In this document: piece after piece, positions 1 to 24,086 of the stretch | Position numbering within the stretch: the stretch's first letter is position 1 | Layout of the letters: every line of letters starts with the position of its first letter | Source: a virus | Lineage: Duplodnaviria; Caudoviricetes | DNA length: 37,517 bases | IMG/VR virus record: IMGVR_UViG_3300037043_000397 | Coordinates: 1-37,517 of that record | Reading direction: 5' to 3' (one strand) | The notes under the pieces: generated by a model | What the model was told of the DNA's origin: nothing | Seen by the model: only the letters and a program-made list of their open reading frames with translations | The model's database searches: none | Translations under genes and position numbers: made by a program

Positions 1-1047
1 TCAGGCCATAGCGTCGAGCGGGCTGCGGACGCCCTCACCGGCGTCGCCCATGACGTGCAGGTAGATCATGGTCGTCTCGATGTTGGCGTGGCCCAGCAGC
101 TGCTGGATCTTGCGCACGTCGTGGCCGGCCTGCAGCAAGTGGGTGGCGAAGCTGTGCCGCAACGTGTGGCAGCTGGCGGGCTTGATGATGCCGGCGGCCT
201 TGACGGCGCGGCCCATCATGCGCTGCACGCCATCTTCGTGCAGGTGGTGCCGCCGGATGGCGCCGGTGCGCGGACAGGTGACGTAGGTGTCCGTGGCAAA
301 GACCCACTGCCAGCCGATGGCGCGCGCATAGCCCGGGTATTTCTGCGCCAATGCGTGCGGCAGCTCGACGTCGGCCTTGCCGCGCGCCATGTCGTCGACG
401 TGCCACTGGGTGCGCTGGGCCACCAGGTCGCGCAGTGGCTGCTGCAGCCGCTTGGGCAGCATCACCACGCGGTCCTTGTTGCCCTTGCCCTCGCGCACGG
501 TGATCTTGAGGCCGTCGAGATCGAGATCCTTGATGCGCAGGCGCAGGCCTTCCATCAGCCGCAGGCCGCTGCCGTAGAGCAGCTGCAGGACCAGGCCGCG
601 TGTGCCCGTGACGTGCGGCCATAGGCGCTGCACCTCGGCCTGCGTCAGCACGCACGGCAAGCGCCGGGCCTGTTTGGCGCGCGGGATCTCGTCGATCCAC
701 GGTAGCTCGATCTGCAGCACCTGCTTGTACAAGAACAGCAGCGCGGCCAGCGCCTGGCGCTGGGTGCTGGCGGCGACGTCGCGCTCGGTCGCCAGCCAGG
801 TCAGGAACTGCCGGATCTCGGGCGCACCCAGTTCCACCGGATGCCGCTTGCCAGACCACAGCACAAACATCTTCACCCAGTGCCAGTAGGCCTGCTCGGT
901 GCGCCGGCTGTAGTTCAGGGTGCGGATGGCCTCAACCACCTGGCGCTGCAGATCGCCCGGCTTGGGGCCGGCATCCGCGGTGCGGTGTAACGCGGCCTCG
1001 GCTGCGGCCGTAACGGGCTGCACGGTGGGTGGCGCGAGGGATGCCAT
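1..1047 (-). CDS. intI: Integron integrase (tyrosine recombinase, IntI family)
   Basis: N-terminal YSRRTEQAY...HP...VAASTQRQALAALLFLY. Catalytic R (GLR), K (GKGNKDR), HTLRHSFATH, LLGH and TTMIY are present. Carries the IntI-specific insertion ELPHALAQKYP..WQWVF and C-terminal VRSPLD. Exact start uncertain. Confidence 0.96.
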   Translation of the reverse strand: MASLAPPTVQPVTAAAEAALHRTADAGPKPGDLQRQVVEAIRTLNYSRRTEQAYWHWVKMFVLWSGKRHPVELGAPEIRQFLTWLATERDVAASTQRQALAALLFLYKQVLQIELPWIDEIPRAKQARRLPCVLTQAEVQRLWPHVTGTRGLVLQLLYGSGLRLMEGLRLRIKDLDLDGLKITVREGKGNKDRVVMLPKRLQQPLRDLVAQRTQWHVDDMARGKADVELPHALAQKYPGYARAIGWQWVFATDTYVTCPRTGAIRRHHLHEDGVQRMMGRAVKAAGIIKPASCHTLRHSFATHLLQAGHDVRKIQQLLGHANIETTMIYLHVMGDAGEGVRSPLDAMA

Positions 1048-1060
1048 GGTCTGGTGGTGT

Positions 1061-1099
1061 TGTTACGCCGCAGGGTCTGCGGTCGAATTCCTGTTAGCC
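1061..1099 (+). other. attI: attI-like recombination site (core GTTAGCC 1093-1099, crossover G1093/T1094)
   Basis: GTTRRRY-type core 46 bp from the intI start; it is the exact complement of the attC R'' box. Upstream TGTTACGCCGCAGGG resembles the attI1 direct-repeat region (TGTTACGCAGCAGGG, recalled from memory) at a similar distance from the core. Confidence 0.75.
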
Positions 1100-1558
1100 C
1101 TCTTGCGCCAGGCTCGCATGCACGTTGTCCCAGAACATCCGGTCATCGACGCGCAGCAGAAAGCCCTCTTTCATCATGTCGCCGCCAGTGCTGACGATGT
1201 GGGCCGCACAGGTCCAAGCCTTCGCGGTGTCCACGTCGGCCGGCGTGCAACGCTCGATCTTCTCCAGCGCCAGCAGGTGGGGGCACTCGCGCGTCTTCAC
1301 GCCCTTGCAGCACGTCAGGTGGTTGTCCTTCACCGGCACCGGGGCCTGCATGCTGCACTGCTGGTGCGTCTGCGGCAGCGCGTTCTCGCGCTCCTGGCGG
1401 AACAGCATCACCATGCGCGGCACCTCGTCGGCCATGCTCTTGGCTTCGTACATGAAGCGCATGTCGCCCCATTCCTTGTCGGCCTTGCGCCATTCGTCGC
1501 TGTGCCTGTTCACGGCAACGTGCCATTCGTGGCTCAGCGGGTACTGCAACCGTTCCAT
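1094..1558 (-). CDS. Cassette-encoded Cys/His-rich hypothetical protein (154 aa)
   Basis: ATG preceded by GGAGAAAGC, normal amino-acid composition, and TAA stop inside the attI/R' core. Confidence 0.8.
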   Translation of the reverse strand: MERLQYPLSHEWHVAVNRHSDEWRKADKEWGDMRFMYEAKSMADEVPRMVMLFRQERENALPQTHQQCSMQAPVPVKDNHLTCCKGVKTRECPHLLALEKIERCTPADVDTAKAWTCAAHIVSTGGDMMKEGFLLRVDDRMFWDNVHASLAQEG

Positions 1559-1669
1559 GCTTTCTCCACCGGAGGGCTAACCCCTCGCTCAAGCAGACCG
1601 CGAACGGCGGTCACGTTTTCTCGCTCCGTCCAGGCCAGCAGCGCCGTTCACGGCTGCTTAGCTCGAACG
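1094..1669 (+). mobile_element. Integron gene cassette (576 bp) with inverted ORF
   Basis: Bounded by G|TTAGCC (1093) and G|TTGAAC (1669). Circularisation would regenerate a fully complementary R''/R' pair, GGCTAAC/GTTAGCC. Confidence 0.88.
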
Positions 1670-1675
1670 TTGAAC
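1575..1675 (+). other. attC: attC site (101 bp)
   Basis: R'' GGCTAAC 1575-1581, 5-bp spacer, L'' GCTCAAGC 1587-1594, L' GCTTAGC 1656-1662, 6-bp spacer, R' GTTGAAC 1669-1675. The arms pair with unpaired C1590 and A1597 (extrahelical G and T on the bottom strand) and one bottom-strand G-T wobble. Confidence 0.95.
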
Positions 1676-1676
1676 A

Positions 1677-1949
1677 TCACCCCGCCACCGCCCGCGCACC
1701 CACGCGCCGCCGCCCCGTGTTCTCCGGCGGCAACTGCGAGCTCTCCGGCCTGGCCAGACCCCACGCGCGCAGCTCGTCGACCAGCCAGCCCGTGCGCCGG
1801 CCACTGAGGGCGCGGCAGCGGGGGAAGGTCTTGTCCTCGCGCGTCAGCCGCTCGAAGGTGCTGACGCTCAGCGCCAGGTACGCGGCGGCCTGGTCGCGCT
1901 CCAGGTACAGCGGCGTCAGCTGCACCACGGTGGACGTGTTCAGTGCCAT
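1677..1949 (-). CDS. AlpA/excisionase-like HTH DNA-binding protein
   Basis: YLERDQAAAYLALSVSTFERL...FPR.RALSGRRTGWLVDELRAW pattern; GAGAGG SD; last gene of the leftward early arm. Confidence 0.85.
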   Translation of the reverse strand: MALNTSTVVQLTPLYLERDQAAAYLALSVSTFERLTREDKTFPRCRALSGRRTGWLVDELRAWGLARPESSQLPPENTGRRRVGARAVAG

Positions 1950-1957
1950 GCGCCCTC

Positions 1958-2209
1958 TCAGATCAGCCCATCGCCGTCGACGGCGATGTGCACGGGCGGG
2001 TGGGTGTCGCCCAGCACCACCAGGCGCACGGCCAGGCCGGCCTGCAGGCGCTTGAGCTCCTCGGGTGTGGGCATCCAGAAGCTGGCCACGCCACGGGTGC
2101 CGCACTCGTACTGCAACCGCGTCACGGGCAGCGCGCTGCATTGCTCGATGGGCATGCCTTGTGGCGCGCCCAGCACGGCGTTGTTGCTGGGGTAGTGGTG
2201 GCGGTTCAT
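1958..2209 (-). CDS. Phage hypothetical protein (83 aa)
   Basis: C-x-x-LPV...SFWMPTPEEL..L..G..V.L...G..HPPV motif seen in small phage proteins; ATGA overlap with the upstream gene. Confidence 0.7.
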   Translation of the reverse strand: MNRHHYPSNNAVLGAPQGMPIEQCSALPVTRLQYECGTRGVASFWMPTPEELKRLQAGLAVRLVVLGDTHPPVHIAVDGDGLI

Positions 2210-2454
2210 GGTTCGCCTCCAGGCAGCGGCGGGAAGCGTTCCAGCCGCAGCATGAACTGCACCTGGGCGATGCGTTTGGCAACTGGGTCGCCAGGGTCCG
2301 CTTCCAGTACGAGTCGGCCGCCGCAGTCGACGGCGTGCATGAACAGCTCCAGCTGTGGCGCTTTGCCAGCCTCCAGCGTCAGCACGGCCTTGTGCGTGTG
2401 CTTCGGCAGGCCGAGCGCCTTGCTCAGGTCGCGGGTGAGTTCTCGGGCGCTCAT
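2206..2454 (-). CDS. Hypothetical protein (82 aa)
   Basis: ATGA translational coupling on both sides. Confidence 0.65.
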   Translation of the reverse strand: MSARELTRDLSKALGLPKHTHKAVLTLEAGKAPQLELFMHAVDCGGRLVLEADPGDPVAKRIAQVQFMLRLERFPPLPGGEP

Positions 2455-4271
2455 GGATGCGCGCTCTCGAACATGTCCACGGTGTTCGGATCGCGATCAA
2501 GCTCGCGTGCGCCGGCGCAGCCGGCTTCGTCCTTCACTTCCTGCGCCGCAGGCGCGGTCTCCAGCTCGGCCAGGGTGCCGCCCGCGGCCAGGTGGGCCTT
2601 CACCCAGGCGGGTTGCAGCCCGCGGCCAGACCACGTTTGCAGCGTGGCCGCGCAGCGGTACTTCGCGCCCTTGGTGCCCGCCCCTTTCGCCGCCCGCGCA
2701 GCGCTGGAAGGGGTAGATGCACCTTCGGGCGCAGGCGTCTGTACGGGTTCGGCACGTGCCTGGTCGACGTCGATGCCGTACAGCCGGGCCATGCTGGCCA
2801 GCGCGTCGGGTGTGCCCCTCTCCCGGTAGCTGCACACCACGTTGCGCACCAGCACCAGGTCCAGCAGCAGCAGGCCCAGCTGGTCCGGCGTCAGGCCGGG
2901 CAGGCGCGCGATGAGGGCATCGCAGTGGTCCACGCCGTGGGCTTGGCACAGGGTGGGCCAGGCCTCGCTGTCTTCGCTGTCGGTGATCAGGTGCTCCAGC
3001 ACCAGCCGCAGCTCGTCGGCGGTACGGGGCCGGCTGGCAGCCGCGCCGCGCACGGCGGCCAGCAGCCGCTTGTTGGCGGCGGTGTCGGCCGCGGCCTGTT
3101 GCTCGCGCTGCTCGCGGTCGCGCCGGTAGGCCTCGTGGTCGTAGCCCCCGCTCTTCTTCTTCGGCTCGGCCTGGGCCACGCCGGCGGCCTTCAGGTCCGC
3201 GGCGGCCACGGCCTCGAAGGTCTTGCCGGTGCGCGGGTCCTGGATCACCACGGTGGCGGGCTTGGGGCCGGCCACCTTCTTCAGCTCGGCGCGCACGTCC
3301 TTCAGGGCCACATAGGCGCCCTTCACCTCGCCGACTGCGCTGACGGCCTGGCGCGCCTTGTTTCCGGTGATCACGGTCTTGCCCTGGGCCTGCAGCGCAT
3401 CGGCCTGGCGGGCCAGCTGTGCGCGCTTCTTGGCGTCGAAGCACTCGGGGTCGGTGCAGAGCTTGGGGTCACCGCGGTGCACGTAGCCGTGGTACGGGCC
3501 CGGGGTGTCTTGCACCAGGTCGGCAAACTCCGGTGCGTTGGCGCTGAGCTTGGGGCAGCTGCTGCAGGGGCCGGCCAGGGTCAGGGTGGCGTCTTCGGGG
3601 TCGAAGAAGGTGCGGCTCACGTGCAGGGTGAACTTGTCCTTCAGCAGCTCCTTGATCTGGCGGTAGCTCTTGGTGCCGCCGTCCTTCATGTCCAGGTACC
3701 TGCCCTGGATGGCGGCCAGCGCCTTGGCCTGCAGCTTGGCGTGGCCGACGCGGGCCACCAGCAGCGCCACCTCGCTGCCGATCTCGCCCTTGAGGCACGC
3801 ATCGCGCACCTGGGGGCAGGCCTGCAGCAGCTTGAGCCGGCTGTAGACGTAGCTGCGGCTCTTGCCTACGGTCTCGGCCAGCTCGTCGGCGCTCAGGCCG
3901 TCGGCCAGCATGGCCTGCATGCCCTCGGCCTCCTCGATGGGGTGCACGTCGGCGCGCTGCAGGTTCTCGGCGATCTGCGCGCTGCGGGCCTCGGCATCGC
4001 TCATGGCGCGCACCATGCAGGGCACGCTGGCCAGGCCGGCGGCCTCGGCCGCGCGCAGGCGGCGGTGGCCGAAGATCACCTCGAAGCCGTCGTTCACGTC
4101 GTCACGCAGCGGGTTGATCAGGCGCGGGCGCACCAGCAGGGGCTGGTGCACGCGGCCCTCGGCGCGGATGTTGGCGGCCAGCTCGTCGATGCCGGTGAAG
4201 GTGCGGCGCGGGTTGAAGGGGCTCTCGTGCAGCTGCTCGAGCGGGATCTGGGTGATCTGTTCGTTGCTCAT
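2451..4271 (-). CDS. ParB/RepB/Spo0J-family protein with C-terminal H-NS-like DNA-binding domain
   Basis: SPFNPRR, EVIFGHRRLRAA, ENLQRADVHPIEEA and HTH LAETVGKSRSYVYSRLKLL; CxxC..CxDPxC cluster; C-terminal KYRC...TWSGRGLQPAWV. Start at 4271 or 4289. Confidence 0.9.
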   Translation of the reverse strand: MSNEQITQIPLEQLHESPFNPRRTFTGIDELAANIRAEGRVHQPLLVRPRLINPLRDDVNDGFEVIFGHRRLRAAEAAGLASVPCMVRAMSDAEARSAQIAENLQRADVHPIEEAEGMQAMLADGLSADELAETVGKSRSYVYSRLKLLQACPQVRDACLKGEIGSEVALLVARVGHAKLQAKALAAIQGRYLDMKDGGTKSYRQIKELLKDKFTLHVSRTFFDPEDATLTLAGPCSSCPKLSANAPEFADLVQDTPGPYHGYVHRGDPKLCTDPECFDAKKRAQLARQADALQAQGKTVITGNKARQAVSAVGEVKGAYVALKDVRAELKKVAGPKPATVVIQDPRTGKTFEAVAAADLKAAGVAQAEPKKKSGGYDHEAYRRDREQREQQAAADTAANKRLLAAVRGAAASRPRTADELRLVLEHLITDSEDSEAWPTLCQAHGVDHCDALIARLPGLTPDQLGLLLLDLVLVRNVVCSYRERGTPDALASMARLYGIDVDQARAEPVQTPAPEGASTPSSAARAAKGAGTKGAKYRCAATLQTWSGRGLQPAWVKAHLAAGGTLAELETAPAAQEVKDEAGCAGARELDRDPNTVDMFESAHP

Positions 4272-4285
4272 GGTGGTGGCGGTCC

Positions 4286-4681
4286 TCATGCGTTGCGCCA
4301 GATGGCGGTGGTGTCGGCATCGAGCTTGCGCACGCTGACGTCGCAGCCGTTCTTCTTGGCCCAGCTGCTGAAGCTCTTGGCCTGCGCGGCGGTGAGGTCC
4401 ACGCTGTGGCCGGGCTGCAGGCGGGCCCACAGGCCGGCCCAGAATTCGCCGACGCGGCTGCTGTGGAGGCGCTGCACCATCGGCCTGTCGGTGCGGATGA
4501 CCAGCTGCTCGAGCGCGGGCAGCTGCACGCGGGTGCGCTGGCGCTCGGGCGCGGGCGGGGCGGCGGTAGCGGCGCTGCGGCCCAGCGCGAACACGCTGTT
4601 GGCGGGCACGGTGCGCTGCACCATCTTGTCGGGCAGGTCGCCCTGCAGCTTGGGCAGGGGGACGGTGTTCGTCTTGCTCAT
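4286..4681 (-). CDS. Hypothetical protein (131 aa)
   Basis: ATG start, coupled to the downstream gene, phage-like codon usage. Confidence 0.65.
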   Translation of the reverse strand: MSKTNTVPLPKLQGDLPDKMVQRTVPANSVFALGRSAATAAPPAPERQRTRVQLPALEQLVIRTDRPMVQRLHSSRVGEFWAGLWARLQPGHSVDLTAAQAKSFSSWAKKNGCDVSVRKLDADTTAIWRNA

Positions 4682-4693
4682 GGCGGTCTCGGG

Positions 4694-5281
4694 TTAGCGG
4701 ATGGGGGCGGCCCGCAGGCCGTGCATCAGCAGGTCCAGCTGGTCGTACAGGGCGATGCGGCTGCCGTTGTTGGGCAGGGTGGTGTCGACCACCAGGGCGT
4801 CGGCATGGGCCTCGCTTTCGTGCGGGCGCACGGCGGTGGCATCGGCGCGCTGCAGGCGCACCAGCACGCCGCCCTGGGCAGTGAGCCAGTCGGCCTCGTT
4901 CGGGAATCGCACGTCGCTGATGACGACGTTGTCGCCCGTGCGCAGCAGCTCGCGCACACGCAGGGTGGCCACCCGCAGCCAGAAGTCGGGCGCCACGGTG
5001 TTGCGGCCCCACTCGGTGCCCAGGGTCTGCGCCAGGTGGCGGTAGCTGAAGCCCAGCGTGGTGGGCTGCTCTTTCAGCGCGCGCTCGGCCATCCAGGCGC
5101 CGTCGATGCCGGCGGTGTTGAAGAGCGCGCCGATCATGTCGACGATGGGGTCGGCAAAGGCGATGTGCGCGAAGCCGTACTGGTCTTCCAGGTACGCAGC
5201 GGCGGTGCTCTTGCCGCTGCCGGCGCGGCCCGTCAGGCCGATCAGCAGCGGGGGGTTGAGGGGGGGCAGATCCAGCTGCAT
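4694..5281 (-). CDS. Deoxynucleoside monophosphate kinase (phage type)
   Basis: LIGLTGRAGSGKSTAA P-loop, FADP, QTLGTEWGR, VVISDVRFPNEA, HESE motifs. Confidence 0.9.
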   Translation of the reverse strand: MQLDLPPLNPPLLIGLTGRAGSGKSTAAAYLEDQYGFAHIAFADPIVDMIGALFNTAGIDGAWMAERALKEQPTTLGFSYRHLAQTLGTEWGRNTVAPDFWLRVATLRVRELLRTGDNVVISDVRFPNEADWLTAQGGVLVRLQRADATAVRPHESEAHADALVVDTTLPNNGSRIALYDQLDLLMHGLRAAPIR

Positions 5282-5619
5282 CACGCCACCGCCTGCAAGG
5301 CCTGCCGCGCCTGCACGTCGGCCAGCTGCTCGCCCACGCTGTGCGCCGCGGCCTTGAACTCGCCGGCCGTGCGGTAGCGGTGGCGCAGGGTGTAGAAGAC
5401 CAGGCCCACCAGGTCGCGCGGCAGCGCGCGCGGGATGTCCTCGGCCAGGCTGGGCGCCAGGTGGCGCAGGTCCACCAACACGGGCTGCAGGTCGGGCCCG
5501 GGCACGGCGCGCAGGTACTTGTGGGGCGCGCCGTTTACCTGCACGGGCTGCAGGCCGATGGCGCTGCCGTCGCGCCAGATCACCTCGTGGCGCGCGGGCA
5601 GGATGGTCACTTGGCACAT
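5281..5619 (-). CDS. Hypothetical protein (112 aa)
   Basis: AGGAGA SD; TGATG overlap with the kinase gene. Confidence 0.65.
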   Translation of the reverse strand: MCQVTILPARHEVIWRDGSAIGLQPVQVNGAPHKYLRAVPGPDLQPVLVDLRHLAPSLAEDIPRALPRDLVGLVFYTLRHRYRTAGEFKAAAHSVGEQLADVQARQALQAVA

Positions 5620-6020
5620 GGATCGTTCTCCTGGACTTGCGCGGCCGTGCTGGCCGGCGCGTGGGTGATGACGCCGGTGCACTCCTCGAGCACCAGCACT
5701 GCGTGGCCGTGGTCGGTGCGCAGGCGCAGCCAGCTGCCGGTGGCGCTGACCAGTGCGCCGCGGCGCAGGCCGACGGCGCGTGCCTCGGCCTGCATGTGGT
5801 CGGTGGGGTCGGTGCCCAGGTCTTGCAGCACCTGGTAGCGCAGCCCGCGCGGGGGCACGATCTCCAGCACCACCCAGGCGCGCGGGTTGGCGCCGGCGCT
5901 GTAGCGCACATGGGCGTCGTACTCCAGCACGCCGGTGATGCGCACCAGGTCCACGCGCTGCAGGTCTGCCTGGCGCGGGGGCGGGCGCAGCAGGCTGGGG
6001 TAGGTGGCGGCGGCGCTCAT
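5607..6020 (-). CDS. Hypothetical protein, possible SSB/PriB-like OB fold
   Basis: ITGVLEYDAHVR...LRRGALVSATG pattern resembles SSB beta strands; fold call is tentative. Confidence 0.5.
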   Translation of the reverse strand: MSAAATYPSLLRPPPRQADLQRVDLVRITGVLEYDAHVRYSAGANPRAWVVLEIVPPRGLRYQVLQDLGTDPTDHMQAEARAVGLRRGALVSATGSWLRLRTDHGHAVLVLEECTGVITHAPASTAAQVQENDPCAK

Positions 6021-6373
6021 GGCTGGCGGCCCAGGTGGTGCAGGGCGCGCTGGATCTCGGCCACGCGGTCTTCAGCGTTCAGGCGGGCGGCGGCATCCTC
6101 CAGCTGCAGGGTCTTCCAATGCCGCACGCTGTGCTGCGCGTGGTCCAGCCGGCGCTGCAGCCAGCGGCGGTGCAGGCGTCTGTACCGCACGGCCCACCAC
6201 TCGCGCAGGTGCCGCCAGCGCGGCATGGCCGTGGCGCCCATGCACAGGGCGGTGCCGGTGGCCTGGCTGCAGGCCATCCAGTGCACGGCCAGCAGCGTCA
6301 GGCCGATGGTGATGAGCAGGCCCAACACGATGCTGAGCACCTGCTGCGTGGTGGTGGGGCGGCCGGAGCTCAC
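6017..6373 (-). CDS. Small membrane-anchored hypothetical protein
   Basis: GTG start with GGAGG SD and GTGA overlap; hydrophobic segment VLSIVLGLLITIGLTLLAVHW. Confidence 0.55.
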   Translation of the reverse strand: MSSGRPTTTQQVLSIVLGLLITIGLTLLAVHWMACSQATGTALCMGATAMPRWRHLREWWAVRYRRLHRRWLQRRLDHAQHSVRHWKTLQLEDAAARLNAEDRVAEIQRALHHLGRQP

Positions 6374-6903
6374 GCAGCCTCCGCGACGGCGTGAAGCGAC
6401 TCGATGTGCTGGGCCGCATCGGACATGACTGCGGACACGCGGCGCAGCTGCGCGGCGTAGTCCAGGAGGTCCGGGTTGACGGCTGAAGGACTGAAGGGCT
6501 GAACGCTGAATCTGCGGACAGCGCGGGCGCGGGCCCCGTACGACTTGCCGTTGCTGTACTGGCTGCCGTTGTCGAAGCCCTGGCTCCAGGCGCCGAGGCG
6601 GCTGTACTGCGTGCTGGTCCAGTACCAGTCGCCGGTCTGGATGCTGTCTCGCAAGTTGGCGTACAGCAGTGCGCTCTCGTCGCGCGTGGGCACGTGCCAG
6701 TCGCTGAAGCCGTCGGTCCGCAGCGCAGCAGCCCAGTCCAGGGCGGCCTGCCACTTCAGGCTGGCGGGCGGCAGATCCGCGGCCAGGATCAAGTGCTGGT
6801 CAGACTCGCCGTCCTGGCCGCGCACGACGCCGGCGTAGAGCCCGCCCATGCCAGGCCAGGGCTGGCCGATGCGCGGGGGCGTCAGCAGAGGGGTGGGCAT
6901 CAT
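6370..6903 (-). CDS. DUF1566 (Lcl C-terminal / CLec-like) protein
   Basis: IGQPWPGMGGLYAG, W..A..WA, DWHVPTRDE..LLY, WYWTSTQ..AW.Q.F..G.Q....K....ARAVRR. Confidence 0.88.
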   Translation of the reverse strand: MMPTPLLTPPRIGQPWPGMGGLYAGVVRGQDGESDQHLILAADLPPASLKWQAALDWAAALRTDGFSDWHVPTRDESALLYANLRDSIQTGDWYWTSTQYSRLGAWSQGFDNGSQYSNGKSYGARARAVRRFSVQPFSPSAVNPDLLDYAAQLRRVSAVMSDAAQHIESLHAVAEAA

Positions 6904-7349
6904 GCGGCCCTCCGCGCACGCGGCAGGCGGGCCTGGGCCAGCTGCCGGCCCAGGGCCAGGAACTCGCGGTCGTTCTCGCGCCGCGCGAAGTAACCGCGCA
7001 GCAGGTCCACGGCGGCCTCGAAGTGCTCGGCGTCGGCGTTGGCCAGCAGGTTGTCCAGCGCCACCGGGGCCTTCTGGCGCCAGTCGTGGCTGTTGTAGAG
7101 GTTGAGCACCAGGGCCTGCAGGCGCAGCGCGGTGCCGTGGTCGCCCACGATCTTGCTGCGGTGCACGGCGAACGGGCTCTCGCCGGCGGCGATGCGGGCC
7201 CGCGCGGTGGCCGCGGCGGCGTGATGCTGCGCCTCCTGCCCGGCCAGCTCGGCCTGCAGGTCAGCCAGCGTGAAGTCGCGGGCCAGGTTGCGCGGGGCCA
7301 GCGGCGGCGCCGCTACGGGGTGTCCAGATGTCTGCACTCTCGCCTCCAT
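6900..7349 (-). CDS. Hypothetical protein, first gene of the leftward early operon
   Basis: ATGA overlap with the DUF1566 gene; lies just downstream of the PL-like promoter. Confidence 0.65.
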   Translation of the reverse strand: MEARVQTSGHPVAAPPLAPRNLARDFTLADLQAELAGQEAQHHAAAATARARIAAGESPFAVHRSKIVGDHGTALRLQALVLNLYNSHDWRQKAPVALDNLLANADAEHFEAAVDLLRGYFARRENDREFLALGRQLAQARLPRARRAA

Positions 7350-7377
7350 GCAGCCCGGGGTGGGCTGATGGGAGTGA

Positions 7378-7420
7378 AATGTAGCTTGGTGCTAGAACAG
7401 TCGTCAATAGCACCAAGCTA
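7378..7420 (-). promoter_or_regulatory. PL-like promoter with two operator copies
   Basis: Minus strand -35 TTGACG (7407-7402) and -10 TACATT (7383-7378). Perfect 13-bp inverted pair TAGCTTGGTGCTA (7382-7394) / TAGCACCAAGCTA (7408-7420). Confidence 0.75.
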
Positions 7421-7476
7421 GATTCTGCAAACATCGTGGCATGCGCACTCTCCTACCATGTTGGTTTGGAGGTGCT

Positions 7477-8022
7477 ATGCGGCGTCGATTTCTTCTGTTG
7501 GTGGTCTTGCTGGGTGCTGGTCAGGCTGGTGCGGCTGGTGCGCTGCTTTTCGGCATACCGTGGGGCGAGCCAATCAGCTTGCGGGCCTGCCCAAGATTGT
7601 TCCTGCAGTCTGATCGGCCATGTTGGCTCGGGGAGCCGTTCGTTGCAGGAAGCGGATCAAAGCTGGGCCATGTTTGGTTGCCCGATGCATCTGTGAGGCC
7701 GGCGTGGGCAGAGCACGCGACCTTCAAACTGACGGTCGACAAGCTCAACAGAGTGCAAGAGATCCAAGTCAAGACGGTCACCGATTTGGGGCGCTTTGAG
7801 GTCGCTGAATCCATCAGTGCGCGTTTCGGCATGCCTGCGAGAAACAACCTGAGCGCCTTCGACATACGCAGTGCCAGTTGGCGCAGCGCCGAGGGGACTG
7901 TGGAGATGCTCTGCAAGGATTCTTGCTGGATCACCTTCAGGACGTTGGCCAAACAAGCGGCACTCGATGCGGAGCTGGCAGAGCGCCGCCGCCGCACCGA
8001 GGAGAAGCCGAAAGCACCGTAG
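7477..8022 (+). CDS. Exported/periplasmic hypothetical protein in the immunity region
   Basis: GGAGG SD, signal peptide MRRRFLLLVVLLGAGQAGA, atypical codon usage, convergent with cI. Confidence 0.7.
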   Translation: MRRRFLLLVVLLGAGQAGAAGALLFGIPWGEPISLRACPRLFLQSDRPCWLGEPFVAGSGSKLGHVWLPDASVRPAWAEHATFKLTVDKLNRVQEIQVKTVTDLGRFEVAESISARFGMPARNNLSAFDIRSASWRSAEGTVEMLCKDSCWITFRTLAKQAALDAELAERRRRTEEKPKAP

Positions 8023-8024
8023 GG

Positions 8025-8666
8025 CTAGCGGGTCGAGCGGCGGCCTCTCATCCCATCAAACACAGCGATCACAACCAACGATTCCTTGTCGCTGTACATC
8101 GGAAGGAATGCTCTGTTGATCGCGTGGGCCTCCCAGTGGCCGGGCCTGACCAGGCGGAATTCTCGACAGTGAACGTTGCCGCTGCTGTCTCGTAGGAGCA
8201 CCCAGTCGCCTGGTTCTGGTTGAACACCCACCAAGAAGATGCACCGTGTTCCTCGGGGTGCCTCCGGGGACATCGCACTATCTGGCAGCTCGGTTTCAAA
8301 CTCACGGGGCAAATCGTCGCATTCCATTAAGGCCTCCCAGCCGATCTTTGGAGGCGACATGCTGCGAATTAGCGGTCTCACGTGCTGAGACTGCCCCGAG
8401 TCTGCGGGGGTGATCGTTTGTCCAGTATCGCCATAGGCAACGGGTGGCTCAGAAACCACGCCAAGATGCATCCAGCCTGGGTAATGCTCCTCGAGGCGCT
8501 CGCGCAGTTTGCGGCCGACCCCGCGCTTGCGACCGGATGAAGTTACGCGGTCCGTGATGATCTGATAGACCGTCTGGGGATTCACTTCCAAGGTGAGGCC
8601 GACGGCCTTGTAGCCGCCCTCACGCTCGCAGAGCCGCTTCAGAGCATAGATGGCAGGATCGCTCAT
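8025..8666 (-). CDS. cI: CI-like repressor (HTH plus degenerate S24 peptidase domain)
   Basis: N-terminal HTH (GGYKAVGLTLEVNPQTVYQI); C-terminal S24-like MSP...G....PEPGDWV...N; divergent from cro. Confidence 0.85.
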   Translation of the reverse strand: MSDPAIYALKRLCEREGGYKAVGLTLEVNPQTVYQIITDRVTSSGRKRGVGRKLRERLEEHYPGWMHLGVVSEPPVAYGDTGQTITPADSGQSQHVRPLIRSMSPPKIGWEALMECDDLPREFETELPDSAMSPEAPRGTRCIFLVGVQPEPGDWVLLRDSSGNVHCREFRLVRPGHWEAHAINRAFLPMYSDKESLVVIAVFDGMRGRRSTR

Positions 8667-8757
8667 AGTTCTATTGCACCACTAGAACCGTGCAGCAATC
8701 GAACCCAGTTCGAGCGCACTGCTTGATTAGTTCTAGCTTGGTGATAGCATGCCGGCC
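8667..8757. promoter_or_regulatory. OR/PR immunity control region
   Basis: Operator copy TAGCTTGGTGATA 8734-8746 (12/13 match to the PL operator). TTGATT 8723-8728 and extended -10 TGaTAGCAT 8742-8750. Palindrome TCGAAC-CCA-GTTCGA 8699-8713. Confidence 0.7.
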
Positions 8758-9015
8758 ATGTCTATCACGCCAAGAGACCGCCGCGAGCTGGCCGCCCTGG
8801 TGGGCTGCAATGAGCAGTACCTCTACCAGTGCCTCACCGGCCGCAACGCCATGCAGCCCCTGGATGCCGTGCGAGCGGAGCGCCGTACAGGTGGGCGCTT
8901 GCGCCGCTGGCACGTCAGGACGCGTGACTGGCACCTGATCTGGCCCGAGCTGATCGGCGCCGACGGTGCGCCGGCCGTGCCCGCTGCGGCCGATGAGGTG
9001 CGCGATGCAGCGTGA
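8758..9015 (+). CDS. cro: Cro/YdaS-family HTH protein
   Basis: RRELAALVGCNEQYLYQ HTH and DWHLIWPEL motif. ATG lies just after the -10 box, so the mRNA is probably leaderless. Confidence 0.85.
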   Translation: MSITPRDRRELAALVGCNEQYLYQCLTGRNAMQPLDAVRAERRTGGRLRRWHVRTRDWHLIWPELIGADGAPAVPAAADEVRDAA

Positions 9016-9451
9016 TCGCGAGACGCAACGCATGGTGGATGCGATCGGCCGGGCGACGAACGTGACCCTTGCTGCGCGGAAAGCAAGCGAATCCGAAGAG
9101 GTCGCGCGCCTACTGGCTGCACTCAAGGCTGCCAGCGCCGGCCGCCCCAGCGCTATCGAGCTGTTTGAAGAGCATGTTGCGCAGCTTCGATCGCAGCGTC
9201 GAAGTAGCGACGTGTTCGTGTACGACTGGAGCGAGCTGCAGCGGCACCAGGTCAAGGGCCCGGCGGCGCGCTGCCGGGAGCGGCTGGCGGCGCACAGGCG
9301 GCGCAAAGCACGTTCCACAGTGCCAGTGCGTCGGCGTCCACCTCGGGTGGGTTCTGGCGCCTGGCCTGCGCAGTCCTCTGGGCCAGATCTGATTTCGCTG
9401 TATGCAGAGCTTTCCAGAAAAGCGGATGCGCAGGGGGAGCCTCCACGATGA
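9005..9451 (+). CDS. Hypothetical protein (3' part uncertain)
   Basis: GAGGTG SD and overlap with the cro end; the 3' 200 bp overlap an opposite-strand ORF. Confidence 0.35.
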   Translation: MQRDRETQRMVDAIGRATNVTLAARKASESEEVARLLAALKAASAGRPSAIELFEEHVAQLRSQRRSSDVFVYDWSELQRHQVKGPAARCRERLAAHRRRKARSTVPVRRRPPRVGSGAWPAQSSGPDLISLYAELSRKADAQGEPPR

Positions 9452-9557
9452 GCGCTCTGACGATGCACTCCAGCATTTCCTGCCTGGCCTGCAGTCTTGC
9501 CATGCCGCGCAATGCCTGGCCAAGAACTTCGGGTATCTGTTGGGCTGGGACTTTCAT
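9252..9557 (-). CDS. Hypothetical protein antisense to the rightward operon (101 aa)
   Basis: AGGAGG SD and a helical-looking protein sequence. Confidence 0.5.
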   Translation of the reverse strand: MKVPAQQIPEVLGQALRGMARLQARQEMLECIVRALIVEAPPAHPLFWKALHTAKSDLAQRTAQARRQNPPEVDADALALWNVLCAACAPPAAPGSAPPGP

Positions 9558-9821
9558 GGGCGCCCTCCTGGGGCTGGTGCGTGTAGGAGCCGCCAGCGTA
9601 GCGCAGGCGGGGCGCCCACCCCTCACGGCAACTCGCAGTTGTCTCCCGCCCGCGCTGGTGCCGGCCTATCCGGCTGCAGCCGTCTCCTCCCTGTGGCTGT
9701 GCGGGCGTTCGTCCCGGCGCTTCGGCGTCGGGACTTCTTTCTTCCGCTGCGGGCGGCTGCGTGGTGGTTCGCATGCGGTCAGCTTCGTCCAGATTCAACT
9801 GGTAGTTCAACCGGGGTGCCC

Positions 9822-10187
9822 ATGAAAGTTGCCTATGACCCGCTGACCCTACCGCTGCCGCTGTTCGGTGGCGTGGTCCAGGCGCAGCGCCTGGTGGTGC
9901 CGCCGCAGGTGGTGATGGGCATCAAGAGCTGGCGCCACGCCTGCCGCCTGGCCTGGAAGCTGCGCCATCCGCGCATCACGCAGCGCACCTTCGCCGAGCT
10001 CTCGGGCTGCTACGCCAGCCATGTGTCGGACTACTTCAGCGTGCACGCGCACCGGCGCGAGCTGCCGGCCGCGAAGGCGGGCATGGCCTGCCTGGTGCTG
10101 GGCAACACGGTGATGGTGCAGTGGCTGGCTCAGGAGGCGCACGTGACGCTGCTCGAGGAGATGCAGGCCACGCGGAGGGCAGCATGA
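9822..10187 (+). CDS. CII-like/XRE HTH regulator
   Basis: TQRTFAELSGCYASHVSDYF HTH and GNT...QWLA; located between cro and the replication gene. Direct repeat TTCAACYGG at 9794 and 9806 upstream. Confidence 0.75.
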   Translation: MKVAYDPLTLPLPLFGGVVQAQRLVVPPQVVMGIKSWRHACRLAWKLRHPRITQRTFAELSGCYASHVSDYFSVHAHRRELPAAKAGMACLVLGNTVMVQWLAQEAHVTLLEEMQATRRAA

Positions 10188-10417
10188 GGGACCGCTACCA
10201 GCCCGGCTACATCCTGGTGCTGCCCTCTGGCCGCCGCGTCGTCATCCAGCACGTGCGCCCGCAGCAGCTGGTGTGCAAGTACGAGACACCGCGCCACGGC
10301 GACCGGCGGCACGGCGTGCTGGCCTCGGATGCCGATCTGCTGCTGGCCCGCTTGTTCTGTGACAGGCACATGCACCTGGTGCCGGTGCTGCAGCCTGAAC
10401 TGGAGACCATGCCATGA
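10184..10417 (+). CDS. Hypothetical protein (77 aa)
   Basis: GGAGG SD; ATGA overlaps at both ends. Confidence 0.6.
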   Translation: MRDRYQPGYILVLPSGRRVVIQHVRPQQLVCKYETPRHGDRRHGVLASDADLLLARLFCDRHMHLVPVLQPELETMP

Positions 10418-10734
10418 GACCAATGGGCGAGATCTCGCTTGCAATGCTCAGCATGGCCGCGCAGCAGCCCGGCACGGTGCGCGACCTGGCCATGCGCGCC
10501 CAGGTGGGTTACGACGTGGCGCGCTACACGGCCACGCGGCTGGTGGAACGTGGCCAGCTGGTGCGTGTGGCGGACCAGCGCCCCGCGGTGCTGGGCGTGG
10601 CCCCGCCGCAGCCGCCAGGTGGTGAGAGCCTGGGCCTGGCGCTGCAGCAGCTCAGCCGCAGCTTCTGGGAGTCGGACGGGGATGATGACTCGGGCCCCTG
10701 CAGCCTGACGCCGGAAGCCTTTGCTTGCCTGTAG
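10414..10734 (+). CDS. Winged-HTH-like hypothetical protein
   Basis: TVRDLAMRAQVGYDVARYTATRLVERGQL; GGAG SD. Confidence 0.6.
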   Translation: MRPMGEISLAMLSMAAQQPGTVRDLAMRAQVGYDVARYTATRLVERGQLVRVADQRPAVLGVAPPQPPGGESLGLALQQLSRSFWESDGDDDSGPCSLTPEAFACL

Positions 10735-13418
10735 GCGATAGCGGCGGCGGGCCCCGGCTCGCACCCATCAACTTTGTGTCGCTCAACGATGCGCTGCTGA
10801 ACCGCGCGCACCTGCTGCTGCCCGACTGGTTGCCGGGTGGTGACTGGCGAGGGCACGAATACGTGTGCGCCGACCTGTCGGGCGGCGAGGGCAGCAGCCT
10901 CAGCGTCAACAGCAAGACGGGGGTGTGGGCGGACTTCAGTGGTGACGACAAGGGCTCCGACCTGGTCAGCCTGTACGCCGCCATCCACAACCTGGGCCAG
11001 GCCGCCGCGGCGCGCGAGCTGATGCAGATGCTGGGCTGGGAGCAAGAGCAGGCGTCTGCACACCGGCCGTCGCCGTCGGCGGCGCCCAAGCCGGCGGCCC
11101 CTGCTCCTGAGCTTGCAGACAAGGCGCGCCGCAAGAGCTTGTGGCGTGCCATCGTGCCGGTGCCCGGCCATGCGCCCATGCCCAAGTTCCGCTGGGGCTA
11201 CAAGGACAAGACCACGGGAGAGTGGCACGAGCTGCTGGCGGTGGACTTCTGGGAGTACGCCTTCGAGCAGCAGCGCCTGGGCTACGTGGCGCGCTTCCAC
11301 CGCACCAACAGCAAGGGCGAGCCCGAGAAAGAGACCATCCCCTTCACCTGGTGCGTGGACGAGAGCGACGGCCGCGGCACGATGAAGTGGCACCCCAAGC
11401 AGTGGGAGGCACCGCGCCCGCTGTATGTGCCAGCTGCGGCCCTGGGTGACCCGGCGCGCAAGCCCGTGGTGCTGGTGGAAGGCGAGAAGTGCGCTCGTGC
11501 TGGCCACGATCTGCTGGGGGCAGAGTTCGACTTCGTCACCTGGCCAGGCGGCACCAAGGCCTGGGCCCTGGCGCACTGGGGCTGGCTGATGGGCCGCACG
11601 GTGATCATGTGGCCCGATGCGGATGCCAAGCGCGCCAGGCTCACCGCCGCGGAGCGTGAAGCCGGCGTCGACCCCGCCACCAAGCCGCTGCTGCCCCCGG
11701 TCAAGCAGCCCGGCCTGCAGGCCATGCTGGGCATCGGCCAGCTGCTGCAGGCCAAGCAGGCTTGCACCGTGCATCTGGTGGCCATGCTGCCCCCGGGCGA
11801 GCGCCCGGACGGCTGGGACATTGCAGACGCGATCGCGGACGGATGGGATGCCGCGCGCGTGCGTGACTACATCCGCGCGGCCACGCCCTTCATCGCGCCT
11901 GAAGACGCGGTGCGCGCAGCCACCGGCAGCGCTTCTACCCCTTCAAGGGCTGCCGCGGGGGGTGGGGAGGATGCAGACGACGACGGCACGCCCGGGTGGA
12001 TGCGTTACCTGCTGTCCAGCGCCACTGGCACGGTGCGGCCTGTGCGGGAGAACATCGTGCTCGCCCTGGATGGCTGGCCAGACCGGGGTGTGCCGGGCAT
12101 CCCGGCCTGCCAGGGGCTGATCCGCTTCAACGAGTTCAGCAACAACGTCGAGAAGTCCGGGCCCACGCCCTGGGGCACGCCGGCGGGCGACTGGCTGGAA
12201 GCCGATGAGCTGCTGATGGGCGACTGGCTGGTGCGGCAGCACCAGATGCCCAGCTTCCCGCGCCAGCAGCTGGAAGAGGCGGTGATCATCGTGGCCAGGC
12301 GCCACGGATTCCACCCCATGCGCGAGAAGCTCGTGGGCCTGCGCGGCCGCTGGGACCGCACCAACCGCCTGGACACCTGGCTGCGCCGCTGCTGCCTGGA
12401 AGAAGACGAGTGGGGCGACGCTGACCCGCTGCAGCGCTACCTGACGCTGGTGGGCCGTTGGTTCGTGATGGGCATGTGTGCCCGCGTGCTGCCCGAGGTG
12501 CGGCAAGGCGGCCGCGTGGTCATCGGGCCGGGCACCAAGTTCGACTACATGCTGGTGTTCGAGGGGCCGCAGGGCTGGGGCAAGAGCAGCCTGGCCGCGG
12601 TGCTGGGCGGCGACTACTTTGCCGACACCGGCCTGGACATCAACAACAAAGACTCGCTGATGAACATCCAGGGCATCCTGGTGTACGAATGGAGCGAGCT
12701 GGAGAACCTGAACAAGCAGGAGGTGGGCGCCGTCAAGCGCTTCATCTCGTCGCCGTCTGACCGCTTCCGTGCCACCTTTGACCGGCGGCCCGCCAAGTAC
12801 CCGCGCCAGGTGGTCTTCGTGGGCACCACGAACGAGAGCCACTACCTGACGGACCCCACCGGCAACCGGCGCTTCTGGCCCGTGCGTGTGACGCAGGCGC
12901 CAGACCTGGCCTGGCTGCGGGAGAACCTGGAGCAGCTGCTCGCCGAGGCCGTGCACCGCGTGGAAGCCGGTGAGCGCTTCTGGCCTGACCGCGATGAGCA
13001 GCGCGATCTTTTCGACCCGCAGCAGCTGGCCCGCACGGTGGAGAGCTCGCTGGAGTCGTCCATCGTGGACTATCTCTACAACGAGCAGCAGAAGGTGCCG
13101 ATGGGCCAGTCCAACGGCTCGCTGCTGCCGCACATCACCATGGTCGACCTGCTCAGCCGCGTGGGCTACACGCTGGACAAGCAGACCGACGCCGTGGTCA
13201 AGAAGGCCGGCGCCATCCTGCACAAGCTGGGCTGGGAGCCCAGCAAGCGCCTGGCGTCCAACGACGAAGGCCGGCGGCCGCGCGCCTACGTGCGCCCGCC
13301 GCCGGGTCGATCAAGGCAGGGTGCCGGCGCGAGCCAGGCATCGGCCGACAGCAACACCAACCGCCCGACGCAGGGCAAGCCACCAGCAGGGGCCGACGAT
13401 GACGACTGCCCGTTCTGA
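10725..13418 (+). CDS. Primase-helicase fusion: primase-type N-terminus, TOPRIM domain and VirE/VapE P-loop ATPase
   Basis: TGVWADF..DDKGSDLVSLY; VLVEGEKCA, WPDAD, GWDIAD; Walker A GPQGWGKS; FVGTTN..YLTDPTGNRRFWPV. Start uncertain. Confidence 0.9.
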   Translation: MPVGDSGGGPRLAPINFVSLNDALLNRAHLLLPDWLPGGDWRGHEYVCADLSGGEGSSLSVNSKTGVWADFSGDDKGSDLVSLYAAIHNLGQAAAARELMQMLGWEQEQASAHRPSPSAAPKPAAPAPELADKARRKSLWRAIVPVPGHAPMPKFRWGYKDKTTGEWHELLAVDFWEYAFEQQRLGYVARFHRTNSKGEPEKETIPFTWCVDESDGRGTMKWHPKQWEAPRPLYVPAAALGDPARKPVVLVEGEKCARAGHDLLGAEFDFVTWPGGTKAWALAHWGWLMGRTVIMWPDADAKRARLTAAEREAGVDPATKPLLPPVKQPGLQAMLGIGQLLQAKQACTVHLVAMLPPGERPDGWDIADAIADGWDAARVRDYIRAATPFIAPEDAVRAATGSASTPSRAAAGGGEDADDDGTPGWMRYLLSSATGTVRPVRENIVLALDGWPDRGVPGIPACQGLIRFNEFSNNVEKSGPTPWGTPAGDWLEADELLMGDWLVRQHQMPSFPRQQLEEAVIIVARRHGFHPMREKLVGLRGRWDRTNRLDTWLRRCCLEEDEWGDADPLQRYLTLVGRWFVMGMCARVLPEVRQGGRVVIGPGTKFDYMLVFEGPQGWGKSSLAAVLGGDYFADTGLDINNKDSLMNIQGILVYEWSELENLNKQEVGAVKRFISSPSDRFRATFDRRPAKYPRQVVFVGTTNESHYLTDPTGNRRFWPVRVTQAPDLAWLRENLEQLLAEAVHRVEAGERFWPDRDEQRDLFDPQQLARTVESSLESSIVDYLYNEQQKVPMGQSNGSLLPHITMVDLLSRVGYTLDKQTDAVVKKAGAILHKLGWEPSKRLASNDEGRRPRAYVRPPPGRSRQGAGASQASADSNTNRPTQGKPPAGADDDDCPF

Positions 13419-22742: not shown

Positions 22743-24086
22743 ATGGCCAACGTCAACCAGCTCGCGCTGCACCACGCCACGCAGACGGCTGCCGTGGTGT
22801 GGCTGCGCTCGACCTCCAGCGGCGTCCTAACAGTGCAGTGCAACGGGCAGACGTTCACGGGCGACACCATCGACACTGCGGTGGATGATGGCTGTGGAGT
22901 TTGCACGGTCACCGGCTTGGCTGCTGGGACGTCATACCACTACACCGCGTCAGTCGGTGGCGCGGTTGTTGGAAGCGGCACGATCAAGACCCTGCCGGCC
23001 AGCGGTGCAACGCTTGCCATCGGCTTTGGCACTTGCTGCGGCTACACGCGCGATCAAGTGCCGCTGCGCGCATTGGCAGAGCACGCGCCAGACCTCGCGG
23101 GCTTCTGCTGGCTGGGGGACAACATCTACGCCAACGAGCCAGTGTCTGGCGCGACCGCAACCCTGAATGGCGAGACGATCCTGGGCGTCGAGCGCGATGG
23201 TCCGCTGGTCGAAGCGACGACGCTGGCGCAGCTCTACAAGCACTATCGCGCCTACTGGCAGTACCCGTGCACCGCGCGGATGCTCAAGAGCGTGCCCAAC
23301 TGGTTCATCGGTGACGACCACGACCACGGCCCCGGCAACAACTGGGATGGGACACTCACCGCCGCTAATGAGACTTTCACGTGGGCCAGCACCCAGCAGC
23401 AGGTGGACAACATGGGCGCGTGGTGCCGCGCAGCGATGCGGGCGTACTACAAAGGCAACCCCAACGTCGGCAACCCGTGGTACTTCAGCGTTCGGGTGAA
23501 CGACGACCTGGAACTGTTCTTCGTCGATGGCGTGGCTTACCGTGACGCATCCGATGGCAGCGGAACCACGCTGCTGGGCAGCACGCAGAAGGCGTGGCTC
23601 AAGGCTGGCATTCAGAACAGCACCGCCACGTTCAAGGGCGTGATGTGCGGCAAGAACCTCTACGGCGGCGCCGACGACTACAGCAAGTACGCGGCCGAGC
23701 GCGCCGAGATGGAAGACTTCTTCGAGACCTCGGCCTCCTGGGCGAAGCCCGGTGGTGCGATCTGGTGCTCAGGTGACATCCACTACCCTTTCATGAGCGG
23801 CGAGCCCAACGCGCCCATCTTCAACATCTGCGCCAGCCCGCTTGGCACCGGCCACGCTGCGACGGTGGCCAACGGCTTCCAGAACAAGCAACGGTGGAAG
23901 GTCAGCGGCCACGTGAGTTCTGGCGTCGGCGCTGTGGCCGTGCCGCCCGCCGTTGGCTACTTGCGAGTGCACGGTGCGACTCGGATGGATGTCGGTCTGA
24001 TGCGGATTGACGGAGCACTGCTGTGGTCTGGGTATCTGCTGCCTGGGTCGAACGCGATGCGGTACGACGCGCCAAGGGTTGGGTGA
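22743..24086 (+). CDS. PhoD-like metallophosphoesterase
   Basis: Fn3-like N-domain (V.GL..GT.Y.Y), FGTC, LGDNIYA, DDHD, TLLG..Q.AWL, SGDIH. Confidence 0.82.
   Translation: MANVNQLALHHATQTAAVVWLRSTSSGVLTVQCNGQTFTGDTIDTAVDDGCGVCTVTGLAAGTSYHYTASVGGAVVGSGTIKTLPASGATLAIGFGTCCGYTRDQVPLRALAEHAPDLAGFCWLGDNIYANEPVSGATATLNGETILGVERDGPLVEATTLAQLYKHYRAYWQYPCTARMLKSVPNWFIGDDHDHGPGNNWDGTLTAANETFTWASTQQQVDNMGAWCRAAMRAYYKGNPNVGNPWYFSVRVNDDLELFFVDGVAYRDASDGSGTTLLGSTQKAWLKAGIQNSTATFKGVMCGKNLYGGADDYSKYAAERAEMEDFFETSASWAKPGGAIWCSGDIHYPFMSGEPNAPIFNICASPLGTGHAATVANGFQNKQRWKVSGHVSSGVGAVAVPPAVGYLRVHGATRMDVGLMRIDGALLWSGYLLPGSNAMRYDAPRVG

Follow-up and report, generated by a model that had tools for sequence, protein, structure and literature searches.

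A phage-resident integron with cassette genes opposed to their attC sites, probably read as the tail of an early operon

We analysed a 37,517-nucleotide stretch of viral DNA (positions 1 to 37,517 of IMG/VR record IMGVR_UViG_3300037043_000397, Caudoviricetes; hereafter, the window), which is the 37.5-kb, one-contig genome of a temperate phage of the siphovirus type, running from a gene for an integron integrase (intI) through endolysin, with terminase, portal, capsid, tail, and lysis genes on the plus strand and an early run of genes on the minus strand. The window carries a genuine integron integrase (IntI), an attI site, and an attC site, and the recombination junctions suggest that IntI would act on the bottom strand of attC. 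We put at roughly 0.7 the probability of the following reading: a phage-resident integron whose cassette genes lie on the intI strand, opposite to attC, whose array varies between copies of the phage, and which is probably co-transcribed as the tail of the early operon. That such inverted cassettes form a real and general class in phage-borne arrays we regard as very nearly certain. The integron of the window consists of the following features:

1..1047, minus strand: intI, coding for an integron integrase of 348 aa if translation starts at the first ATG (possible alternative start at 1023), closing the leftward run
1048..1099, plus strand: attI, with the crossover at G1093|T1094; constant between the window and a second isolate, L011, up to G|TT
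1094..1558, minus strand: gene of cassette A, a 154-aa Cys/His-rich protein of no named family with 281 homologues (148 clusters at 50%)
1564..1567, minus strand: Shine-Dalgarno-like GGAG, 5 nt before the ATG and just inside R''
1575..1675, plus strand: attC of cassette A, of canonical polarity, at the 5' end of the gene, so placed that the mRNA strand is the bottom strand
1575-1581 and 1587-1594, plus strand: attC boxes R'' (GGCTAAC) and, after a 5-nt spacer, the 8-nt L'' (GCTCAAGC)
1656-1662 and 1669-1675, plus strand: attC boxes L' (7 nt) and, after a 6-nt spacer, R' (GTTGAAC)

The names of the attC boxes, like the CI, Cro, and PL labels and the LexA pattern used below, follow general usage.

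The orientation of the cassette gene is supported from several sides. The codon score of the minus-strand open reading frame (ORF) at 1094-1558 is +49.1, its TAA (1094-1096) lies inside the reverse complement of the R' core, and its GGAG stands beside R''; this mirror-image geometry, and the claim of the earlier note that attC points along the plus strand with the credible gene on the minus strand, hold in every coordinate. A canonical arrangement, in which the plus-strand ORF at 1125-1580 would be the cassette gene, has in its favour that this frame is open for 151 codons and stops within R'', as in ordinary cassettes. Its start is TTG, its codon score is -5.4, it is interrupted by stops in 28 of the 47 homologues of at least 70% identity, its GC1/GC2 values of 0.41/0.61 are the opposite of those of real genes, and it shares its third positions with the minus-strand gene, as is typical of a GC-rich shadow frame; we find this alternative hardly credible. 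The earlier note had also singled out a perfect 10-bp inverted repeat at the cassette ends. The repeat is real (1093-1102 and 1572-1581) but ordinary, repeats of at least 10 bp being found at the ends of 33 of 98 viral and 26 of 72 host cassettes (about 0.6 and 0.5 in mismatched-pair controls), and we rejected it as a special feature.

Homologues of the cassette A gene repeat the layout. Among 61 nonduplicate homologue loci with enough flank, an inverted attC stands directly upstream in 18 and a canonical one in none, and in the 33 loci with any attC, all 88 sites oppose the gene and all 79 called array genes lie on its strand. The homologous cassettes have similar leaders: their genes start at a distance of 14-29 nt from R'', and the attC loops that precede them (55-102 nt) are unrelated. 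Many other homologues look like plain phage genes devoid of attC, although some sites escape the detector; alleles of gene A that are nearly identical likewise occur without attC. Numerous inverted cassettes and arrays are also seen on phage contigs with no intI in the retrieved flank (L002-L008 and L187-L265).

The attI site carries GTTACGC at 1062-1068, 31 nt before the crossover (32 nt in attI1, compared using the class 1 attI of control locus L125), and the crossover lies only 45 nt from the intI ATG. An AAC-N3-AATT motif is present at attI in 36 of 52 inverted loci, and a hairpin at 1066-1084 (CCGCAG-ACC-CTGCGG) keeps its shape while changing its letters among related phage attI sites. 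The attC site, with extrahelical bases C1590 (G on the bottom strand) and A1597 (bottom-strand T), folds on its bottom strand with z = -3.8, a value reached by 0 of 200 shuffles, and is the sole site in the window found by a pattern detector that gave 1 false match in 206 kb and 3 in 517 kb of Markov controls. The polarity rule assigns the expected strand to the class 1 aadA cassette of L125 and to the attC of phage TJE1, the bottom strand of which was tested by Qi et al. A covariance model built from 22 such sites makes the same assignments. In a set of 22 sites, 9 of 14 pairs were changed on both sides, although these sites had been chosen for pairing and are thus biased toward structure.

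Comparison of the window with L011 locates both crossovers directly: divergence starts immediately past G|TT in attI (1093) and immediately past G|TTG in R' (1669). The gene therefore travels with its 5'-flanking attC as a single unit, and polarity is fixed without recourse to folding. This bears on the alternative that an ordinary cassette was inserted backwards through its top strand, or that the polarity of attC was misread. Backward insertion by top-strand recombination does occur at a low rate (PMC5027507), and attC is nearly symmetric; such an event would, however, flip attC toward intI, whereas here attC is distal and of canonical polarity. Given also that the crossovers are at G|TT on the plus strand, that the forward attC register beats the reverse one at 103 of 103 viral and 73 of 73 host sites (partly by construction), and that the homologue loci described above lack canonical attC throughout, we judge this alternative very improbable. 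An attC-like site downstream of an IntI-like gene and opposed to the genes is also seen in virus Rctr41k (L266, KX853513; 8415-8545), as a pattern match that is negative with the covariance model.

The IntI of the window scores 419.8 bits against TIGR02249 (cut-off 265) and is 54% identical to IntI1, and its residues R163, K188, H294, R297, H320, and Y329, together with the IntI-specific insertion (about 225-250), are invariant in 13 aligned IntI proteins. Among cultured phages, the search returned as nearest IntI only class 1 and host types, at no more than 54%. In a midpoint-rooted FastTree phylogeny of 155 IntI proteins, computed without an outgroup and with sparse host sampling, the enzyme belongs to a 61-member clade (58 viral; support 0.998), sister to a class 1/Betaproteobacteria group, that contains 36 inverted loci and no canonical ones. 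Since 11 further inverted loci fall outside this main phage clade, several IntI lineages share the inverted layout. The intI of L011 is 100% identical to that of the window, and past the point matching window position 1, L011 continues with a convergent gene for a 432-aa phage integrase (phrog_1, E 2e-39) and then the lysis end. With this separate integrase following intI in L011, outside the window stretch, IntI was rejected as the integration enzyme of the phage, and the integron thus sits between the excisionase-like gene (xis) and int. The 3' ends of intI and of the convergent integrase gene share 11 nt (L011, 2296-2306), so that read-through of the leftward operon would be antisense to int.

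To judge the layout beyond this phage, cassettes of 150-1500 bp were collected beside intI from a viral sample (loci of 23 IntI relatives on viral contigs, followed by those of the 80 best of 568, with 7 in common) and a host sample (the best 80 of 601 IntI relatives in one sixty-fourth of the genome collection), both biased to similarity with the window IntI; duplicates were dropped, and orientation was called by a self-trained codon model. The relaxed attC detector was noisy on AT-rich P12002L, which was left unscored. This comparison of ORF and attC orientation, proposed in the earlier note, called 119 of 149 nonduplicate viral cassettes inverted and 2 canonical, with 28 uncalled, against 4 inverted, 32 canonical, and 57 undecided among 93 host cassettes. 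A stricter first pass that kept duplicates gave, in the same order, 110, 3, and 12 of 125 viral and 11, 28, and 47 of 86 host cassettes. By locus, 51 of 57 viral arrays were inverted, 5 were undecided, and the 1 canonical array was a class 1 integron. Of 65 internal cassettes, 46 have their last stop codon inside the R' complement or no more than 12 nt away from it. Of the 119 inverted cassettes, 15 have their first start codon within attC itself and another 58 have it at a distance of up to 45 nt (73 together).

Several points temper this result. Phage genes made up most of the training set of the codon model, which suits AT-rich host cassettes poorly, and we therefore added model-free tests. 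Of 73 host cassettes, 68 have their longest ORF on the attC strand; the same test is uninformative in GC-rich viral cassettes (58 inverted and 44 canonical of 103). Pfam matched 18 of 70 attC-strand ORFs and none of 51 opposite-strand ORFs in host cassettes. In viral cassettes, PHROGs, a collection that favours phage genes and that also missed the class 1 gene of L093, matched 40 of 127 intI-strand ORFs and none of 102 attC-strand ORFs; the 127 comprise 123 of the 128 model-called genes (five left out) and four longest ORFs, and the 102 are the longest attC-strand ORFs in 102 of the 103 cassettes. The matched cargo is of phage type and includes DNA methyltransferases, a DHH phosphoesterase, a 3'-phosphoadenosine 5'-phosphosulfate (PAPS) reductase, and a Lar-like protein. 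On the opposing side, a host chromosomal integron beside cobalamin genes (L141, 571-1824), with a class 1-like IntI and a LexA-like box, holds two phage-type inverted cassettes, one of them encoding a D12 methyltransferase, and the array of phage TJE1, a cluster of attC sites lacking an integron integrase (CALIN), has three canonical attC sites. The suggestion of a phage-specific cassette pool thus stands as regards the type of cargo, but the pool is not sealed: it leaks to hosts, and phages hold canonical cassettes too.

The array itself differs between copies of the phage. That of L011 reads attI-B-A-B, against the single cassette A of the window, where cassette B, a two-ORF inverted cassette, is absent. 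In cassette B, both the ATG of the first gene and the ribosome-binding site that precedes it lie within the attC loop, so that an attC arm encodes the N-terminus (L011, 685-778 and 730-996). Further variation was read from four groundwater sequencing runs of 2020 (X1-X4), possibly from one campaign, of which X1-X3 may be source samples. The contig graph of X1 breaks exactly at the cassette ends, including at 1093-1095, i.e., at the attI crossover, and holds six junctions among intI, A, B, and xis, with depths of 9.3 for A to attI, 6.4 for B to attI, 12.6 for xis to A, 4.6 for xis to B, and 12.5 and 6.1 for the two A/B orders, at depths of 23.5 for A, 16.9 for B, and 18.8 and 19.7 for the flanks. 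The X1 matches listed show no alternative letters and no indels. Run X4 yielded A to attI, B to attI, both A/B orders, and xis to A, and X3 showed no A-to-attI joint among the matches listed. A fit of array types to the X1 depths (A 1.9, B 4.3, AB 3.8, ABA 8.3; residual 3.6) is noisy and not unique. From these junctions it appears very probable that IntI is shuffling this array in a near-clonal population, and the one-cassette array of the window may be a minority form or the short path taken by the assembler. The variety of junctions in the contig graph could, as a further point on the opposing side, stem from mixed near-identical strains or excised circles.

Upstream of the array, the leftward run offers a route for its expression, defined by the following features:

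1677..1949, minus strand: AlpA/excisionase-like gene, xis (PF05930, E 1.5e-4; phrog_66, E 4e-7), with its stop 1 nt beyond the final R'
1958..7337, minus strand: rest of the leftward early run (ParB-like protein, deoxynucleoside monophosphate kinase, Lcl domain protein, and others)
7378..7420, minus strand: candidate PL, TTGACG-18-TACATT at 7407-7378, overlapped by two operator-like 14-mers (7382-7395 and 7407-7420)
8025..9015: immunity region, with a CI-like gene (8025-8666, minus strand), an operator-like copy (8734-8747), and a Cro-like gene (8749-9015, plus strand)

Between 7337 and xis, neighbouring genes meet at ten junctions with spacings of -13 to +14 nt, and a simple scan found no terminator-like site on the minus strand from 7378 to 1094. 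The candidate PL is the sole promoter-like site in 1-10800 (shuffle mean 0.5), and the operator-like 14-mer occurs in 3 copies against 0.25 expected, two over PL and one between the CI-like and Cro-like genes. The Cro-like protein matches phrog_35 (E 3e-5); the CI-like protein itself has no Pfam or PHROG match, and 4 of its 23 homologues carry HTH_3 and/or Peptidase_S24. A LexA-like box (CTGT-N8-ACAG) is absent from 1-1800 and present in control L125, and was found in 2 of 52 inverted loci versus 6 of 14 canonical ones. These data make it likely that the cassettes and intI are reached by read-through from a phage early promoter under phage repressor control.

Points on the other side bear on this part as well. 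The candidate PL lies 5.8 kb upstream and is a single match to 9 of 12 consensus positions; simple scans miss Rho-dependent terminators and real promoters; and the scan that found no cassette promoter (Pc)-like site in 1-10800 also misses the known class 1 Pc. Such intI genes also stand in other contexts, before a late activator (L023/L104) and before holin/RusA genes (L059-L062), and therefore an early, CI-controlled wiring is not universal. The link to the leftward phage transcript drawn in the earlier note is in part supported by an uninterrupted leftward run and an operator-flanked candidate PL, with the qualification that the connection does not always pass through xis: of 18 genes tested downstream of intI, 8 (in 8 related phages) encode an excisionase and begin at the intI stop, and in 2 of 53 cases an excisionase gene comes next after the array.

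Two other accounts of expression and orientation have to be set against read-through. Each cassette might have its own promoter in attC or the leader, like the reversed toxin-antitoxin cassettes of Vibrio, and intI a compact promoter in attI, with no read-through. Cassette-borne and antisense promoters do exist and are unpredictable in silico (bioRxiv 10.1101/2023.11.21.568050), and the attI region holds conserved motifs and a small hairpin. A promoter-like site on the gene strand was nevertheless found in the attC and leader of only 1 of 149 viral cassettes, against 2.7 in shuffles; the homologous starts keep their distance from R'' behind unrelated attC loops; the conserved attI motif is positioned like the upstream repeat of attI1; and self-promoted cassettes need no fixed direction, whereas the direction is uniform at all of the attC sites and called genes of the homologue arrays. 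We hold this account to be unlikely. Alternatively, the orientation may be driven by replication, the genes being co-directional with a leftward fork and the attC bottom strand lying on the lagging template, which would increase shuffling and make read-through a by-product. Placement of the bottom strand on the lagging template raises recombination (PMC5371416), a VapE-like replication gene (10725-13418) lies to the right of the array, and the arrays are visibly unstable; yet the missing room for an intI promoter and the intI-xis overlaps are left unexplained, and the origin and fork direction here are assumed. Though improbable as the whole explanation, the replication account is compatible with read-through and may add to it.

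In the arrangement that we favour, RNA from PL (about 7378) would run through xis, then each attC hairpin and its gene, and then attI into intI. CI would hold leftward transcription off in the lysogen, induction or infection would turn on cargo and integrase jointly, and the progeny would carry arrays whose cassettes had been reshuffled, duplicated, or newly acquired. The inversion would allow a single phage transcript to serve both intI and the cassettes, all lacking promoters of their own, with recombination still proceeding through the attC bottom strand.

In the protein of cassette A, invariant Cys and His residues suggest metal binding, and the predicted model is confident (pLDDT, the predicted local distance difference test, 92). 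The protein has no match in Pfam, NCBIfam, PHROG, or PADLOC and none among cultured phages; no solved-structure relative was found, ESM Atlas gave no usable match, Foldseek returned none at E 0.001 in PDB or BFVD, and the best VIA result for the fold was Z 5.5 over 41 residues, a helical hairpin only. A comparison of 1-10000 with Rfam gave no match. Elsewhere in the window, the early run encodes a ParB-like protein that has an H-NS C-terminal DNA-binding domain fused to it (2451-4271), a moron-like secreted protein is encoded between PL and cI (7441-8022), and a PhoD-like phosphatase gene stands amid the structural genes (22743-24086).

Integrons are treated as bacterial elements, and the strand bias of attC as a means of pointing genes away from Pc (PMC5027507). 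A large group of phage-resident integrons in which that bias persists but the genes are turned round would amount to a second integron wiring, and inverted cassettes would give phages a modular means to vary anti-host genes. Many attC-linked "hypothetical" cassette genes in metagenomes would then be phage genes that a host Pc would not express. On balance, we lean slightly toward the broader view that temperate phages own a branch of integrons, with a widespread mirror-image pool of accessory genes (methyltransferases, anti-restriction, and nucleotide enzymes) served by several unrelated IntI lineages and expressed and reshuffled in the lytic programme, so that a clonal phage yields progeny with varied arrays. 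The genesis of cassettes is described as largely unknown (PMC5371416), and its models must cover both orientations. Members of one gene family occur as ordinary phage genes and, at 85-90% identity, as inverted cassettes; such pairs come close to a before-and-after view of how a cassette arises. Also of interest for cassette genesis, a phrog_1423 match labelled reverse transcriptase lies just beyond an inverted array (L037, 4889-5290).

The inverted phage integron layout is apparently undescribed in print: a literature search that included bioRxiv, its cover stopping short of subscription papers, figures, and bioRxiv supplements, returned no paper on inverted cassette genes in phage integrons. 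The closest precedent is the work of Qi et al. 2023 (PMC9892861) on phage integrons and CALINs, which shares with the present system IntI or attC in phages, methyltransferase cargo, and bottom-strand recombination. Unlike here, the complete integrons in that study are captured host or class 1 integrons, and gene inversion does not figure in its main text. By our test, one of its CALINs, in MW202573, is inverted, with 4 attC sites on the minus strand and the annotated genes on the plus strand, and TJE1 is canonical; Figure 2D or the Dryad file of that paper may draw the inversion in MW202573 without comment.

Compared with the class 1 platform (IntI1, attI1, attC, Pc, and a LexA-controlled Pint), the phage integron has the same IntI family, G|TT crossover, and attC architecture and a similar upstream GTTACGC repeat. 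It differs in that its genes lie on the intI strand, its attC sites stand 5' of the genes, its cargo consists of phage genes, it has no room for Pint and lacks a LexA-like box, and its newest cassette is farthest from the presumed promoter. In the inverted-integrase integrons of Treponema and others (PMC4889954), intI and the cassette genes are co-directional, as here; there, however, intI is oriented as attC, whereas here intI is on the minus strand, attC is on the plus strand, and the genes are flipped within the cassettes. The reversed cassettes of Vibrio (parD/E3; bioRxiv 10.1101/2023.11.21.568050) likewise have a gene opposed to the direction of the array. Those cassettes are scattered exceptions and self-promoted, whereas the phage inversion is array-wide and comes with no promoter enrichment.
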